Shown: positions 23,675 through 29,879 of the stretch, piece by piece
Layout of the letters: each line of letters starts with the position of its first letter
Position numbering within the stretch: the stretch's first letter is position 1
From: Escherichia coli
Lineage (GTDB): Bacteria > Pseudomonadota > Gammaproteobacteria > Enterobacterales > Enterobacteriaceae
Assembly: GCF_024298765.1 (NCBI RefSeq)
Contig: NZ_CP101210.1
Reading direction: 5' to 3' (one strand)
Length of the DNA stretch: 64,000 nt
Notes under the pieces: generated by a model
Seen by the model: only the letters and a program-made list of their open reading frames with translations
What the model was told of the DNA's origin: nothing
Databases searched by the model: none
Made by a program: the position numbers and the translations under genes

Positions 23675-26272
23675 TTAAACCGCAGTCTGGAAAATCACCC
23701 CATCGGCTTTTTCGGTGTACTGAGAAAGCTGGTTGAAGTTCAGATAACGGTAAGTATCAACGGCAGTTTTATCTACTTGCGCCACGTAGGTCTGGTACTC
23801 TTCCGGCGTCGGCAGTTTGCCAATCAGCGCCGCAACAGCAGCCAGTTCCGCAGAAGCCAGGAAGACATTCGCGCCCGTCCCCAAACGGTTCGGGAAGTTA
23901 CGGGTAGAGGTGGAAACCACCGTCGCACCGTCTGCTACACGCGCCTGGTTACCCATACACAGGGAACAGCCAGGGATCTCGATACGAGCACCACTCTTAC
24001 CGAAGACGCTGTAGTAGCCTTCTTCGGTCAGCTGTGCAGCGTCCATACGCGTTGGCGGTGCCACCCACAGGCGGGTCGGCAACTGACCTTTGTGCGCATC
24101 CAGCAGTTTACCCGCAGCACGGAAGTGACCGATGTTAGTCATGCAAGAACCGATAAACACTTCGTCGATCTTCTCGCCCTGTACCGCAGACAGCGGACGA
24201 GCGTCGTCCGGGTCGTTCGGTGCACAGAGGATTGGCTCTTTAATATCCGCCAGATCGATGTCGATCACTGCCGCGTATTCCGCATCTGCATCGGCTTCCA
24301 GCAGCTCAGGATTCGCCAGCCATTTTTCCATGCCCTGAATACGACGTTCCAGGGTACGACGATCGCCGTAACCTTCCGCGATCATCCACTTCAGCAGGAC
24401 GATGTTAGAGTTCAGGTATTCGATGATCGGTTCTTTGTTCAGCTTGATGGTACAACCGGCAGCAGAACGCTCGGCAGACGCATCGGTCAGCTCAAATGCC
24501 TGCTCAACTTTCAGATCCGGCAGACCTTCAATTTCCAGAATGCGACCAGAGAAGATGTTTTTCTTGCCTTTCTTCTCAACGGTCAGCAGACCTTGTTTGA
24601 TTGCATACAGCGGAATGGCGTGAACCAGGTCGCGCAGGGTGATGCCCGGCTGCATTTTGCCTTTGAAGCGCACCAGAACGGATTCCGGCATATCCAGCGG
24701 CATTACGCCTGTTGCGGCTGCAAATGCCACCAGACCAGAACCCGCCGGGAAAGAGATACCGATCGGGAAACGGGTATGGGAGTCACCACCGGTACCGACA
24801 GTATCCGGCAGCAGCATACGGTTCAGCCAGGAGTGGATTACGCCGTCACCCGGACGCAGCGACACACCGCCACGGTTCATAATGAAGTCCGGCAGCGTGT
24901 GGTGCGTGTTAACGTCAACTGGTTTCGGATACGCCGCGGTGTGGCAGAAAGACTGCATCACCAGGTCAGCCGAGAAGCCCAGGCACGCCAGGTCTTTCAG
25001 TTCATCACGAGTCATCGGGCCGGTGGTGTCCTGGGAACCTACAGAAGTCATTTTCGGTTCACAGTACGCGCCCGGACGAATGCCTTTCACGCCACAGGCA
25101 CGGCCTACCATTTTCTGCGCCAGCGAGAAGCCGCGATCGCTCTCAGCGACATCTTTCGCCTGACGGAACACATCGCTGTGCGGCAGGCCAAGTGCTTCAC
25201 GCGCTTTGGTGGTCAGGCCACGCCCAATAATCAGCGGAATACGGCCGCCAGCACGCACTTCATCAATCAGCACGTCGGTTTTCAGTTCGAAGGTCGCCAG
25301 CAGTTCGCCGGTTTCGTGGTTACGCACTTCACCTTTGTACGGGTAAACGTCAATTACGTCGCCCATGTTCAGGTTAGAGACGTCGACTTCGATTGGCAGC
25401 GCACCCGCGTCTTCCATCGTGTTAAAGAAGATGGGTGCAATTTTACCGCCGAGGCACAAACCACCGCCGCGTTTGTTCGGCACATGTGGAATATCATCGC
25501 CCATAAACCACAGAACGGAGTTAGTGGCGGATTTACGCGATGACCCCGTACCCACAACGTCACCGACGTACGCCAGTGGGAAACCTTTCTGTTGCAGAGC
25601 TTCGATTTGCTTAATCGGACCAACAACGCCTGGCTGATCTGGCTCAATACCTTCACGGGCGTTTTTCAGCATCGCCAGCGCGTGCAGTGGGATATCCGGG
25701 CGTGACCACGCATCCGGTGCCGGAGAGAGGTCATCGGTGTTGGTTTCGCCTGTGACTTTGAAGACGGTAACGGTCAGTTTTTCAGCCAGCGCCGGGCGAT
25801 TCAGGAACCATTCGGCATCTGCCCAGGACTGCATTACCTGCTTCGCATATTCGTTGCCTGCTTTCGCTTTCTCTTCTACGTCATAGAAGTTATCGAACAT
25901 CAGCAGCGTGTGAGAAAGTGCTTTGGCAGCGATCGGTGCCAGTTTGGCATCATCCAGCGCGTCGATCAGCGGATGAATGTTGTAACCACCCTGCATGGTG
26001 CCCAGCAGTTCGATGGCTTTTTCCGGAGTCAGCAGAGGGGATTTGGCTTCGCCTTTAGCGATAGCAGCCAGGAAGCCTGCTTTTACATAGGCGGCTTCAT
26101 CGACGCCTGGGGGAACACGGTTGGTTAACAGATCTAACAGGAATTCTTCTTCGCCCGCGGGCGGGTTTTTCAGCAGCTCTACAAGCGCGGCCATTTGGTT
26201 TGCATCCAGGGGTTTGGGCGCAATCCCCTCAGCGGCACGCTCAGCTACGTGCTTACGGTATTCTTCTAGCAC
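23675..26272 (-). CDS. acnB: aconitate hydratase B (2-methylisocitrate dehydratase)
   Basis: ORF 23675..26425 trimmed to the GTG at 26272 giving [22 protein letters not shown] (865 aa). Confidence 0.95.
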
Positions 26273-26626: not shown

Positions 26627-28384
26627 ATGAAAATGACTTTGCCGTTTAAACCCCATGTGCTGGCGCTAATTTGCAGTGCCGGGCTTTGTGCCGCCTCTAC
26701 CGGGCTATATATAAAAAGCCGCACAGTGGAAGCGCCTGTGGAACCGCAATCGACACAACTGGCTGCGCCTGACATCTCCGCAGTTACGCTTCCTGCAACG
26801 GTTTCCGTGCCTCCTGTAACACCTGCCGTCGTCAAATCCGCATTCAGCACTGCGCAAATAGATCAATGGGTTGCACCTGTCGCGCTATACCCCGACTCTC
26901 TGCTTTCACAAGTGTTAATGGCATCAACCTATCCGGCAAACGTTGCTCAAGCAGTGCAATGGTCGCACGATAATCCACTTAAACAAGGCGATGCTGCTAT
27001 TCAGGCGGTATCTGACCAGCCCTGGGACGCCAGCGTCAAATCACTGGTGGCCTTTCCACAGTTGATGGCATTGATGGGCGAAAACCCGCAATGGGTGCAA
27101 AACCTGGGCGATGCTTTTCTGGCGCAGCCGCAGGAGGTGATGGACTCGGTACAGCGATTGCGGCAACTGGCGCAACAAACCGGCTCGCTGAAGTCATCAA
27201 CTGAACAGAAAGTTATTACCACAACGAAGAAAGCTGTACCGGTAAAACAGACAGTCACGGCTCCCGTCATACCATCCAATACCGTTTCAACTGCCAACCC
27301 TGTCATTACAGAGCCTGCAACAACCGTCATTTCCATTGAACCCACCAATCCTGATGTGGTCTATATTCCCAACTACAAGCCAACCGTGGTTTACGGGAAC
27401 TGGGCCAATACTGCGTATCCGCCGGTTTATCTGCCGCCGCCAGCCGGAGAACCGTTTGTTGACAGCTTTGTGCGCGGATTCGGCTATAGCATGGGCGTTG
27501 CTACCACGTACGCGCTATTCAGCAGCATCGACTGGGATGACGACGATCATGACCATCATCATCATGACGATGATGATTATCACCATCACGATGGCGGTCA
27601 TCGTGATGGTAATGGCTGGCAACACAATGGCGACAACATCAATATCGACGTCAACAATTTCAACCGTATCACCGGTGAGCATCTTACTGATAAGAATATG
27701 GCATGGCGGCACAATCCAAACTACCGTAATGGTGTGCCCTATCATGATCAGGATATGGCAAAGCGGTTTCATCAAACCGATGTCAACGGCGGAATGAGCG
27801 CCACGCAGCTACCTGCTCCAACACGCGACAGCCAGCGTCAGGCGGCAGCAAGTCAGTTTCAGCAACGAACACACGCCACACCCGTCATTACGCGAGATAC
27901 CCAACGTCAGGCAGCGGCACAGCGGTTTAATGAAGCTGAAAACTATGGGAGCTATGACGACTTCCGCGACTTCAGCCGTCGCCAACCACTGACCCAGCAA
28001 CAAAAGGACGCCGCTCGTCAGCGTTATCAGTCGGCCTCTCCTGAGCAGCGCCAGGCAGTCCGCGAGAAAATGCAGACTAACCCGCAGATCCAGCAGCGAA
28101 GAGAGGCAGCGCGTGAGCGCATTCAGTCTGCAACTCCCGAACAGCGCCAGGTGTTTAAGGAAAAAGTACAGCAGCGCCCACTGAATCAACAGCAACGTGA
28201 TAACGCCCGCCAGCGTGTTCAATCAGCATCACCTGAGCAACGTCAGGTTTTTCGGGAGAAAGTTCAGGAGAGCCGCCCGCAACGTCTAAACGACAGTAAC
28301 CGTACTGCCAGGCTGAATAACGAGCAACGGTCAGCAGTACGCGAACGGCTGTCTGAACGTGGAGCAAGACGGCTGGAAAGGTAA
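26627..28384 (+). CDS. yacH: DUF3300-family secreted protein of unknown function, with low-complexity His/Asp tract and Q/R-rich repeats
   Basis: 585-aa ORF with signal peptide; start uncertain. Confidence 0.8.
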   Translation: MKMTLPFKPHVLALICSAGLCAASTGLYIKSRTVEAPVEPQSTQLAAPDISAVTLPATVSVPPVTPAVVKSAFSTAQIDQWVAPVALYPDSLLSQVLMASTYPANVAQAVQWSHDNPLKQGDAAIQAVSDQPWDASVKSLVAFPQLMALMGENPQWVQNLGDAFLAQPQEVMDSVQRLRQLAQQTGSLKSSTEQKVITTTKKAVPVKQTVTAPVIPSNTVSTANPVITEPATTVISIEPTNPDVVYIPNYKPTVVYGNWANTAYPPVYLPPPAGEPFVDSFVRGFGYSMGVATTYALFSSIDWDDDDHDHHHHDDDDYHHHDGGHRDGNGWQHNGDNINIDVNNFNRITGEHLTDKNMAWRHNPNYRNGVPYHDQDMAKRFHQTDVNGGMSATQLPAPTRDSQRQAAASQFQQRTHATPVITRDTQRQAAAQRFNEAENYGSYDDFRDFSRRQPLTQQQKDAARQRYQSASPEQRQAVREKMQTNPQIQQRREAARERIQSATPEQRQVFKEKVQQRPLNQQQRDNARQRVQSASPEQRQVFREKVQESRPQRLNDSNRTARLNNEQRSAVRERLSERGARRLER

Positions 28385-28396
28385 ATTACAGGCGTA

Positions 28397-28426
28397 AAAA
28401 AAGCGGCGTGGTTAGCCGCTTTTTTA
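28397..28426. terminator. bidirectional terminator between the convergent yacH and lpd genes (aaaaaaagcggc...gccgctttttt)
   Basis: hairpin flanked by A-tract and T-tract, read directly from the sequence. Confidence 0.75.
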
Positions 28427-28454
28427 ATTGCCAGATGTCCCGGCAAACGAAAAA

Positions 28455-29879
28455 TTACTTCTTCTTCGCTTTCGGGTTCGGCAGGTCGGTAATGCTACCT
28501 TCGAACACTTCTGCCGCCAGGCCCACAGACTCGTGCAGCGTCGGGTGCGCATGGATGGTCAGTGCGATGTCTTCAGCGTCACAACCCATTTCGATTGCCA
28601 GGCCGATTTCACCCAGCAGCTCGCCGCCGTTAGTACCGACAATCGCACCACCGATCACACGGTGAGATTCTTTGTCGAAAATCAGCTTGGTCATACCGTC
28701 TGCGCAGTCGGAAGCGATAGCACGACCAGAAGCAGCCCACGGGAAGGTGGCGGTTTCATAGCTGATGCCTTTCTCTTTCGCTTCTTTCTCGGTCAGACCA
28801 ACCCATGCAACTTCTGGTTCGGTATAGGCGATGGACGGGATAACTTTCGGATCGAAGTAATGTTTTTTACCGGCGATAACTTCAGCGGCAACGTGACCTT
28901 CGTGAACACCTTTGTGTGCCAGCATCGGCTGACCGACGATATCGCCGATAGCAAAGATGTGCGGTACGTTGGTACGCAGCTGTTTGTCAACGCGGATGAA
29001 ACCACGGTCGTCAACTTCCACGCCAGCTTTGCCTGCGTCGAGGTTTTTACCGTTCGGCACACGACCAATCGCTACCAGCACGGCGTCGTAACGCTGCGGT
29101 TCAGCGGGTGCTTTTTTGCCTTCCATCGTCACATAAATGCCGTCTTCTTTCGCTTCAACGGCGGTAACTTTGGTTTCCAGCATCAGGTTGAATTTCTTGC
29201 TGATACGCTTGGTGAAGACTTTAACGATGTCTTTGTCAGCTGCCGGGATAACCTGGTCGAACATTTCAACCACATCAATCTGTGAACCCAGCGCGTGGTA
29301 TACGGTCCCCATTTCCAGACCGATGATACCGCCACCCATTACCAGCAGGCGTTCTGGTACTTCTTTCAGTTCCAGCGCGTCAGTGGAGTCCCAGATACGC
29401 GGATCTTCATGCGGAATAAACGGCAGTTGGATCGGGCGAGAACCCGCTGCAATGATCGCGTTGTCGAAGTTGATCACGGTTTTGCCGTTCTCACCTTCAA
29501 CTTCCAGGGTGTTAGCCCCGGTGAATTTACCCAGACCGTTGACCACTTTGACTTTGCGGCCTTTTGCCATACCAGCCAGACCACCGGTCAGCTGATTGAT
29601 CACTTTCTCTTTCCAGGTACGAATCTTGTCGATATCGGTTTTCGGTTCGCCGAAGACGATACCGTGTTCAGCCAGCGCTTTGGCTTCTTCGATAACTTTT
29701 GCTACGTGCAGCAGTGCTTTAGAAGGGATACAGCCGACGTTCAGGCAAACACCGCCAAGGGTGGCGTAACGTTCTACGATTACGGTTTCCAGACCTAAAT
29801 CAGCGCAACGGAAGGCAGCGGAGTAACCTGCGGGGCCTGCCCCAAGTACCACGACCTGAGTTTTGATTTCAGTACTCAT
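28455..29879 (-). CDS. lpdA: dihydrolipoyl dehydrogenase (E3)
   Basis: ORF 28455..29912 trimmed to MSTEIKTQVVVLGAGPAGY (474 aa); FAD/NAD Rossmann motifs; redox-active CLNVGCIPSK. Confidence 0.95.
   Translation of the reverse strand: MSTEIKTQVVVLGAGPAGYSAAFRCADLGLETVIVERYATLGGVCLNVGCIPSKALLHVAKVIEEAKALAEHGIVFGEPKTDIDKIRTWKEKVINQLTGGLAGMAKGRKVKVVNGLGKFTGANTLEVEGENGKTVINFDNAIIAAGSRPIQLPFIPHEDPRIWDSTDALELKEVPERLLVMGGGIIGLEMGTVYHALGSQIDVVEMFDQVIPAADKDIVKVFTKRISKKFNLMLETKVTAVEAKEDGIYVTMEGKKAPAEPQRYDAVLVAIGRVPNGKNLDAGKAGVEVDDRGFIRVDKQLRTNVPHIFAIGDIVGQPMLAHKGVHEGHVAAEVIAGKKHYFDPKVIPSIAYTEPEVAWVGLTEKEAKEKGISYETATFPWAASGRAIASDCADGMTKLIFDKESHRVIGGAIVGTNGGELLGEIGLAIEMGCDAEDIALTIHAHPTLHESVGLAAEVFEGSITDLPNPKAKKK

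Follow-up and report, generated by a model that had tools for sequence, protein, structure and literature searches.

The gene yacH of Escherichia coli was analyzed in a stretch of 64,000 nucleotides of contig NZ_CP101210.1 (assembly GCF_024298765.1), called the window throughout. In a program-made list of open reading frames (ORFs) it encodes 585 residues plus a stop, and its product, YacH, is recognized as a member of the DUF3300 family (Pfam PF11737), with 261.4 bits against a cut-off of 25 (gathering score) and an E-value of 8.2e-78, the match spanning residues 75-333 and profile positions 2-227 of 227. Together with the RefSeq annotation as yacH of a 100% identical allele in E. coli strain 104, this confirms the gene name and family that an earlier inspection of these letters (the sequence-only reading) had assigned. 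Among 5426 complete E. coli genomes, a yacH match is present in 5425 and at least 80% of the gene is covered in 5415. Besides its DUF3300 core, the protein contains two low-complexity modules, namely a tract made mostly of His and Asp and a tandem array of Gln/Arg-rich repeats (Table 1).

Relatives of YacH number 9426 at E ≤ 0.001 among 1.84 billion cluster representatives. An alignment of 87 full-length representatives plus the window protein (88 sequences) was used for family comparisons and for building an AlphaFold2 (AF2) model, with a mean predicted local distance difference test score (pLDDT) of 72 and a predicted template modelling score (pTM) of 0.61. Selection was evaluated as the ratio of nonsynonymous to synonymous divergence (dN/dS) by the Nei-Gojobori method.

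Table 1. Features of yacH and of its surroundings in the window (residues are those of YacH)
Feature	Residues	Coordinates	Strand	Description	Basis
yacH coding sequence, DUF3300 family	1-585	26627..28384	+	585 aa plus stop	ORF list; Pfam PF11737; 100% identical allele annotated yacH
Probable Sec signal peptide	1-23	26627..26695	+	MKMTLPFKPHVLALICSAGLCAA	By-eye reading; AF2; homologues
Conserved alpha-helical DUF3300 core	71-190	26837..27196	+		AF2; alignment conservation; dN/dS
Linker	191-231	27197..27319			
Pro/aromatic-rich beta region plus Gly-rich hydrophobic segment	232-303	27320..27535	+		88-sequence alignment; AF2; hydrophobicity
Gly-rich hydrophobic segment	281-303	27467..27535		GxxxGxxxA-like, ending in conserved Trp	
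His/Asp tract	304-327	27536..27607	+	DDDDHDHHHHDDDDYHHHDGGHRD; disordered acidic His-rich loop; imperfect GAY/CAY codon repeats	
Post-tract part of core	328-385	27608..27781	+		Conservation 0.65-0.90; AF2; dN/dS 0-0.23
Two 23-aa motifs	396-441	27812..27949	+	P-x-x-T-R-D-[ST]-Q-R-Q-A-A-A-x-[QR]-F	Offset-23 diagonal score 57; AF2 helices 400-414, 423-434
Repeat array		27980..28267		Three tandem units	
Repeat unit 1		27980..28075	+	32 aa; RQPLTQQQKDAARQRYQSASPEQRQAVREKMQ	Diagonal; alignment; AF2 helices 457-468, 472-483
Repeat unit 2		28076..28171	+	32 aa; TNPQIQQRREAARERIQSATPEQRQVFKEKVQ; place of the extra unit of 4-/5-copy alleles	AF2 helices 486-500, 504-515
Repeat unit 3		28172..28267	+	32 aa; QRPLNQQQRDNARQRVQSASPEQRQVFREKVQ; 98% nt identical to K-12 unit 4	Low AF2 confidence
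Basic C-terminal tail	548-585	28268..28381	+	Net +5; keeps LNNEQRSAVRER element; without A[FL]SGNDSRSPSW..Q.QRG.QSR	
yacH-lpdA spacer		28385..28454		70 bp	
A-run, GC hairpin (GCGGC-gtggtta-GCCGC), T-run		28396..28425		Within the spacer	Direct reading
86-aa ORF overlapping the tract		27515..27775	-		
153-aa ORF overlapping the tract		27336..27797	+	Other frame than yacH	
gcd, PQQ (pyrroloquinoline quinone) glucose dehydrogenase		16651..19059			
cueO		19255..20844	-	Three multicopper-oxidase domains	Pfam
acnB		23675..26272	-	Divergent from yacH	
lpdA		28455..29879	-	Convergent with yacH	

The His/Asp tract and the repeat array

Residues 302-328 of YacH read DWDDDDHDHHHHDDDDYHHHDGGHRDG and are encoded at 27531..27610, in agreement with the His/Asp tract described by the sequence-only reading. 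Of the 24 residues of the tract proper, 9 are His and 11 are Asp; its net charge is -10, and it shows the dense His clustering typical of His-rich metal-binding loops of the RcnA/ZnuA type. Outside it His and Asp make up 6.1% of YacH, and the occurrence of at least 20 of these residues in 24 has a window-corrected P of ~2e-18. Tandem Repeats Finder, when applied to the window, detects periods of 15 and 24 bp within the tract, both of them imperfect (75-82% matches).

An alignment of six E. coli alleles, used to locate indels in both modules, revealed that the tract is shorter by 13 residues in Survcare253 and longer by 2 and 8 residues in LS4 and NCTC9022, respectively. In DNA, the first of these alleles has lost 39 bp, and the other two carry duplications of 6 and 24 bp, respectively; the three changes are situated inside GAY/CAY codon repeats and are thus consistent with slippage between short direct repeats. 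The allele with the 13-residue deletion retains DDDDHDHH only, while that of LS4 (1764 bp) has the same length as the allele of a sampled ST131 strain. Many further variants differing by 1-3 residues occur, with ~17 distinct tract sequences among 120 E. coli protein clusters, and 9 of 60 sampled genomes carry a non-reference tract length, as judged from total gene length. In all the intact E. coli alleles examined, length variants are in frame. A frameshifted allele, that of UC4316, had been suspected of being broken within the tract, which proved not to be the case.

In Salmonella Typhimurium 14028s, UK-1, SL1344, and D23580, yacH is described as a pseudogene, due to a shared 8-bp deletion at D-D-H-H codons (Asp284) (PMC3391293, PMC10048834). 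The tract of S. arizonae begins at W280, which agrees with the position of that deletion. Two further ORFs overlap the tract in the window (Table 1); both give low-complexity I/V/M/T translations and are accordingly regarded as a by-product of the GAY/CAY codon repeats rather than as evidence for genes.

Regarding the C-terminal part, three tandem Gln/Arg-rich repeats had been proposed with a length of roughly 28 residues; the three units are real, while their period is 32 residues (96 bp). The period-32 diagonal score of the protein reaches 213, in comparison with 48 ± 8 (maximum 75) for 200 composition-preserving shuffles of the C-terminal region. This score replaced Tandem Repeats Finder for the 96-bp period, which the program missed in the window because the units are too diverged in DNA (64-68% identity, and 56-72% in protein) and does find in a K-12-type allele, whose central units are 84-92% identical in DNA. 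The array is rich in Gln (26%) and has a net charge of +11.

The units follow each other head to tail and in frame, with 2-5 copies in E. coli, so that they constitute a coding variable-number tandem repeat. That repeat number differs between strains, as had been anticipated, was borne out by comparison of strains, where 2, 3, 4, and 5 copies were found and tract length varied too. The extremes correspond to strains 158274-3 (two copies) and P0001 (five), and the 120 protein clusters include alleles with three, four, and five. In a sample of 60 genomes spread evenly down the ranking of the 5425, 33 carry four copies (~55%, the K-12 and O157 types), 25 carry three as the window does (~42%), one carries two, and another is highly divergent. 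The extra unit of K-12 is 84-92% identical to its neighbour, and therefore fits unequal recombination between units, whereas the different three-unit composition of the B2 alleles indicates more than one copy-number event. Since copy number mostly tracks allele lineage, it behaves as a stable polymorphism and not as a fast switch. Searching the literature for yacH together with 'tandem repeat' produced surname matches only.

The AF2 model assigns two helices, with pLDDT 70-82, to each 32-residue unit that it resolves (units 1 and 2, Table 1), and the second helix of every unit starts at S-P-E-Q, a standard helix N-capping box. Two families with similar features were considered for this region. 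The S-P-E-Q-R-Q helix starts resemble the LTXXQ motif of CpxP, Spy, and ZraP, to which YacH is also likened by its modelled helical hairpins and by its reported CpxR regulation (PMC9600279); membership was discarded, a Pfam search of the C-terminal half of YacH at E up to 10 yielding no LTXXQ match and only sub-threshold similarities to DUF3106, RskA_N, and DUF1104. DUF3106 (PF11304), with PEQR-type repeats, shows a weak profile similarity over two YacH repeat units (E 0.013), and membership was rejected since its 16.4 bits fall below the curated cut-off of 24.3. No match was obtained in a search of NCBIfam.

As for the rest of the protein, the N-terminus displays a basic n-region, a 13-residue hydrophobic core (residues 11-23), and small residues ahead of S24, before which cleavage probably occurs. 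This by-eye reading supports the signal peptide proposed by the sequence-only reading, a helix is modelled at residues 10-21 within it, and 83 of the 88 family members have an N-terminal hydrophobic segment. The helical domain (residues 71-190) is modelled with pLDDT 95-98 and contains the invariant or near-invariant A83, A86, L87, P89, D90, T101, W133, G161, Q176, and R179. The beta region follows (194-201 and 232-250, ~94), with strands over residues 232-303 (72-94, and 72-84 in the Gly-rich segment) up to the near-invariant W303 that closes it. Residues 310-334 appear disordered (below 50, against 84-94 in the flanks), and a well-defined unit is recovered at residues 338-385 (78-94). The post-tract part of the core includes a NINIDV strand and a W360-x-H362-x-P-x-x-R367-x-G-V-x-Y372 motif, so the conserved core (W360, H362, P364, R367, Y372) extends past the tract and beyond the end of the Pfam model. 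H362 is the sole well-conserved His of the family outside the tract.

DUF3300 relatives and the DUF2950 partner

What YacH has in common with the DUF3300 family is a helical core, a beta region rich in Pro and aromatic residues, the W-x-H-x-P-x-x-R motif, and a polar tail of basic character. YacH differs from most members of the family in a 24-residue His/Asp insertion at a loop that usually has four residues, as well as in its own 32-residue array, and Escherichia YacH further differs in having neither a downstream DUF2950 gene nor the C-terminal A[FL]SGNDSRSPSW motif. The loop that leads from W303 to the (I/V)x(I/V)D(I/V) strand consists of exactly four residues in 75 of the 88 sequences and of four or fewer in 78, that of Bordetella being one of four. 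A long His/Asp loop (23-26 residues) appears in only three of the 87 others, all close relatives of YacH, two of which could be assigned to Scandinavium and Rahnella. In six further homologues the loop comprises 6-16 residues and shows no enrichment in His or Asp.

A scan of one genome per species provided 29 yacH loci. All 22 non-Escherichia Enterobacteriaceae proteins contain an H/D/Y/G-rich insertion of 18-35 residues that starts with WDDD(D). Its histidines are not conserved among orthologues, their number ranging across Enterobacteriaceae genera from 11 in E. albertii to 3 in Yokenella and Enterobacter ENT03 and 1 in Buttiauxella agrestis, and one E. coli allele has the 13-residue deletion. 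Behind the core, a polar, basic, and repetitive tail is common to the family, being net positive in 86 of 88 sequences (median +14). A period of 32 residues is limited to Escherichia (E. coli, E. albertii, E. whittamii, and other Escherichia sp.), the tail repeats of other genera having periods of 18-19, 26-28, or 34-35 residues. The insertion is therefore lineage-specific and the array Escherichia-specific, aspects that the sequence-only reading had missed together with the loss described below.

DUF3300 genes are usually paired with a gene of the DUF2950 family (PF11453), which in Rahnella and Bordetella, as well as at two distant metagenomic loci, lies ~20 bp or less downstream. Over all the non-Escherichia genera sampled, the DUF2950 gene encodes 264-285 residues and starts 10-20 bp after the DUF3300 gene. 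Within the acnB-yacH-lpdA slot, this distance is 10-13 bp in all of the non-Escherichia Enterobacteriaceae genera sampled, and many of these genera add before lpdA an ORF of 94-98 residues with a hydrophobic N-terminus. E. albertii keeps the small ORF and has no DUF2950, while in the window yacH and lpdA are separated only by the 70-bp spacer, so that no DUF3300-DUF2950 pair is present. Consistently, tblastn with the Raoultella DUF2950 matched 26 loci (25 beyond that of the query), including every non-Escherichia locus compared, and neither any Escherichia locus nor the window, and a DNA-level search of the 5426 E. coli genomes with the Rahnella DUF2950 gene (blastn, 'distant' setting) found no match. 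In rhizobia, DUF3300 and DUF2950 proteins, which both have signal peptides, are reported to be always co-localised (PMC4653623). Searches for either family returned no solved structural relative and no known function.

The C-terminal motif follows the same distribution. A[FL]SGNDSRSPSW..Q.QRG.QS[RQL] (AFSGNDSRSPSW...) is found in the 22 non-Escherichia Enterobacteriaceae proteins and is recognizable in the family consensus as AF.G...R..RG..SR, whereas A[FL]SGNDSRSPSW is absent from all Escherichia alleles compared. This joint loss of motif and DUF2950 suggests that the motif may serve the partner protein. The loss of both in Escherichia had not been expected.

A divergent allele was observed in E. 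coli AST85 (L009:3001-4860, 619 residues), in the same slot between acnB and lpdA. This allele encodes an H/D tract of its own (DDDHHDHHHHDDDDHHNHNDD) and three nearly identical repeats of 35 residues, megablast matches it to just 98 nt of the window yacH, and import from another species is possible.

YacH is under purifying selection, repeats included. Comparison of E. coli alleles with one another gives dN/dS values of 0.12-0.18, and that with E. albertii gives 0.11; by parts, the values are 0.06-0.16 for repeats plus tail and 0.02-0.15 for the helical core. Between genera, YacH shows 47-57% identity, in comparison with 91-96% for AcnB and 96-98% for LpdA, and the window diverges from K-12 by ~3.8% in yacH versus 1-2% in the flanks. 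Hypervariability of the gene (90-95% nucleotide identity) was considered and rejected, being partly due to BLAST pieces that overlap in the repeats, and the divergence being mosaic. Against B2 alleles, synonymous divergence (dS) is 0.01-0.02 in the helical domain, 0.3-0.6 in the repeats (27980..28384), and 0.83 in the linker of residues 191-231, a level also reached against E. albertii. Such a mosaic suggests intragenic recombination between old allele classes. Disrupted copies are rare in E. coli, and one of them is a frameshift in a laboratory mutant. In addition, SW071611 carries the insertion sequence IS1A in yacH after codon ~26, and E69 an insertion of ~770 bp at yacH nt 1105-1112 with flanks overlapping by 8 bp.

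Regarding the surroundings, the conserved synteny of yacH consists of acnB and lpdA. The hairpin in the spacer, flanked by an A-run and a T-run, is likely a bidirectional terminator of the convergent yacH and lpdA; it was not listed by a simple promoter/terminator scan, which was uninformative overall.

Possible origins and roles of the two modules

The observations on anatomy, variation, phyletic distribution, selection, and loss of partner and motif are best explained, with reasonable though not high confidence, by the recent addition of two low-complexity modules to a conserved DUF3300 core. Our confidence in any function for tract and repeats is lower than that. According to this explanation, YacH would be a Sec-exported envelope protein of a large uncharacterised family in which, in Enterobacteriaceae and Rahnella, the His/Asp tract expands the four-residue W303-x-x-x loop just before a conserved beta-strand, its GAY/CAY codon repeats probably gaining and losing in-frame segments between short direct repeats. 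The property conserved in this loop is the acidic WDDD(D) start and a H/D/Y/G-rich composition, not fixed histidines. As to export topology, ligands, and physiological role, we infer that the tract most likely acts as a flexible polyanionic loop, with a charge that titrates with pH, and that it would be a low-specificity binder of divalent cations, and perhaps of other cationic ligands, without forming a dedicated metal site. The repeats, in turn, are an Escherichia-specific, recombination-prone basic array modelled as helical, that is, the local form of the basic tail of the family, in which unequal recombination between 96-bp units presumably produced the 2-5 copies that mostly follow lineage. 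This array stands where other genera keep the C-terminal motif, lost together with DUF2950, and the tail is probably an extended basic tether or spacer that touches an anionic envelope component.

Several points weigh against this explanation: (i) the ligands proposed for both modules are deduced from charge and composition, (ii) selection for metal binding would be an equally good reason for the retention of an H/D-rich loop throughout Enterobacteriaceae and also in Rahnella (Yersiniaceae), an argument weakened by the variable His count, (iii) the third repeat has pLDDT below 50 in the AF2 model, and the prediction of the tail is effectively a single-sequence one, as the aligned sequences do not have homologous tails, (iv) the population frequencies are estimates based on 30 and 60 sampled entries, and (v) export of YacH was judged by eye from its sequence.

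The first alternative is that the tract serves dedicated periplasmic metal binding, chelating Zn, Ni, Cu, or Co for buffering, delivery, or sensing, as the His-rich loops of RcnA and ZnuA do. Almost any such His-rich peptide binds Ni or Zn in vitro, and metal binding by the tract is plausible from its composition, with 9-11 His interleaved with Asp in 24 residues. Enterobacteriaceae and Rahnella both retain a H/D-rich insertion in this loop, which also suggests that the composition is selected. In the literature on multiple-locus VNTR analysis (MLVA), the STTR5 unit is a perfect 6-bp repeat. A precedent is provided by this STTR5 locus (yohM/rcnA), used in MLVA of Salmonella, which shares with yacH a length-variable in-frame repeat encoding a His-rich segment between conserved parts of an envelope protein (PMC5183578). 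RcnA is, however, an established Ni/Co efflux protein and STTR5 is highly polymorphic, 8-14 units being common (PMC5183578), whereas yacH has an imperfect codon repeat, far fewer and mostly lineage-bound variants, and a putative metal role.

Other observations speak against a dedicated metal site. Histidines drop to three and even one in some genera, which nevertheless keep the acidic start, natural E. coli alleles come down to DDDDHDHH, and outside the tract H362 is the single His well conserved in the family. The sequence-only reading had invoked the proximity of cueO; nonetheless, cueO lies 5.8 kb away in a separate unit, with speE, speD, a UPF0231 gene, and acnB in between and gcd on its other side, so that this argument carries no weight for a metal role of YacH. 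No metal-related gene, operon partner, or regulator is linked to yacH, whose neighbours are acnB and lpdA. Neither did the yacH passages of the literature naming this gene with E. coli reveal any link to metals, nor did a literature search of yacH with metal terms give anything relevant, and the regulators and phenotypes that have been reported concern Cpx, Rob, and cationic peptides (PMC9600279, PMC7537768, PMC6737244). Considering all this, a dedicated metal-binding function seems unlikely, and the tempting link between yacH and copper homeostasis has to be corrected as unsupported.

The latter reports raise the alternative that the polyanionic loop, maybe balanced by the basic tail, binds or concentrates polycations such as protamine, the level of YacH tuning susceptibility under Cpx or Rob. 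The gene is described as CpxR-regulated, its deletion mutant survives protamine better than the wild type, its mRNA drops with protamine dose in a partly CpxR-dependent manner, and cecropin A lowers its mRNA too (PMC9600279). Other reports describe an altered yacH expression in UTI89 upon treatment with the cathelicidin-derived peptide B22 (PMC6737244) and a strong decrease in a rob mutant (PMC7537768). The opposite charges of tract (-10 over 24 residues) and repeats (+11) fit with such interplay. However, it relies on one phenotype from one laboratory, not mapped to either module, the transcript does not change in the same direction with all peptides, and the role of homologues with four-residue loops is left unexplained. 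Moreover, a scan of the window for CpxR boxes (GTAAA-N5-GTAAA) gave 61 matches versus 51 ± 8 expected, and the only site upstream of yacH has two mismatches, which is no better than chance. We consider this interplay with cationic peptides decidedly unlikely as the explanation of the modules.

An equally doubtful alternative concerns topology, namely that residues 281-301 of the Gly-rich segment form a transmembrane helix that leaves tract and repeats in the cytoplasm. The segment has a GxxxGxxxA pattern and a conserved terminal Trp, its best 19-residue Kyte-Doolittle window scores 1.6 or higher in 39 of the 88 homologues (median 1.53), and the net positive charge of the tail in nearly all of the family is what the positive-inside rule predicts. 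On the contrary, the segment of E. coli, in which Arg, Ser, Thr, and Tyr are present, attains no more than 0.78, AF2 yields in-domain strands and no helix for it, and the 15 residues that follow it in the homologues are not enriched in K/R over D/E (1.48 vs 1.61). In Enterobacteriaceae, in addition, it directly precedes the net -10 tract, ill-suited to a cytoplasmic flank.

Finally, neutral decay, by which yacH would have become functionless after the loss of DUF2950 and its modules would be drifting slippage products, could account for the lost partner and motif, the S. Typhimurium pseudogenes (PMC3391293), the insertion sequences and frameshifts of some E. coli, the low identity between genera relative to AcnB and LpdA, and a deletion mutant that is viable and even fitter in some assays, including a modestly raised yield of recombinant protein (PMC9600279, PMC7376861), but it was rejected on dN/dS (0.1-0.18 overall and as low in repeats and tail) and is very improbable given also the in-frame length variants, the coverage of the gene in nearly all genomes, and the retention of the array since the split of E. 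coli and E. albertii.

YacH as an entry point to DUF3300 and DUF2950

In itself, a low-complexity loop together with a coding repeat polymorphism in an uncharacterised gene is of modest interest, and the YacH case is an ordinary example of such polymorphism in an uncharacterised exported protein. The natural alleles, with 2-5 repeats and tracts that vary from -13 to +8 residues, are nonetheless ready-made variants for the protamine phenotype reported. The loss of the DUF2950 partner and of the conserved motif in Escherichia adds a comparative twist.

A bolder proposal, to which we give little credence, is that Escherichia has rewired a widespread two-gene envelope system, DUF2950 having been deleted and the partner-facing motif replaced by an expandable basic helical array; acidic His-rich loop and array would then act as a pH- or cation-responsive switch that sets susceptibility to cationic peptides under Cpx/Rob, the copy number of each strain tuning the response. 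Whatever the role, DUF3300 and DUF2950 constitute an exported pair with more than 9000 sequence clusters, and YacH offers an entry point to both. Escherichia represents in this sense a natural experiment, in which the partner and a conserved motif are gone and the remaining gene is still under purifying selection.

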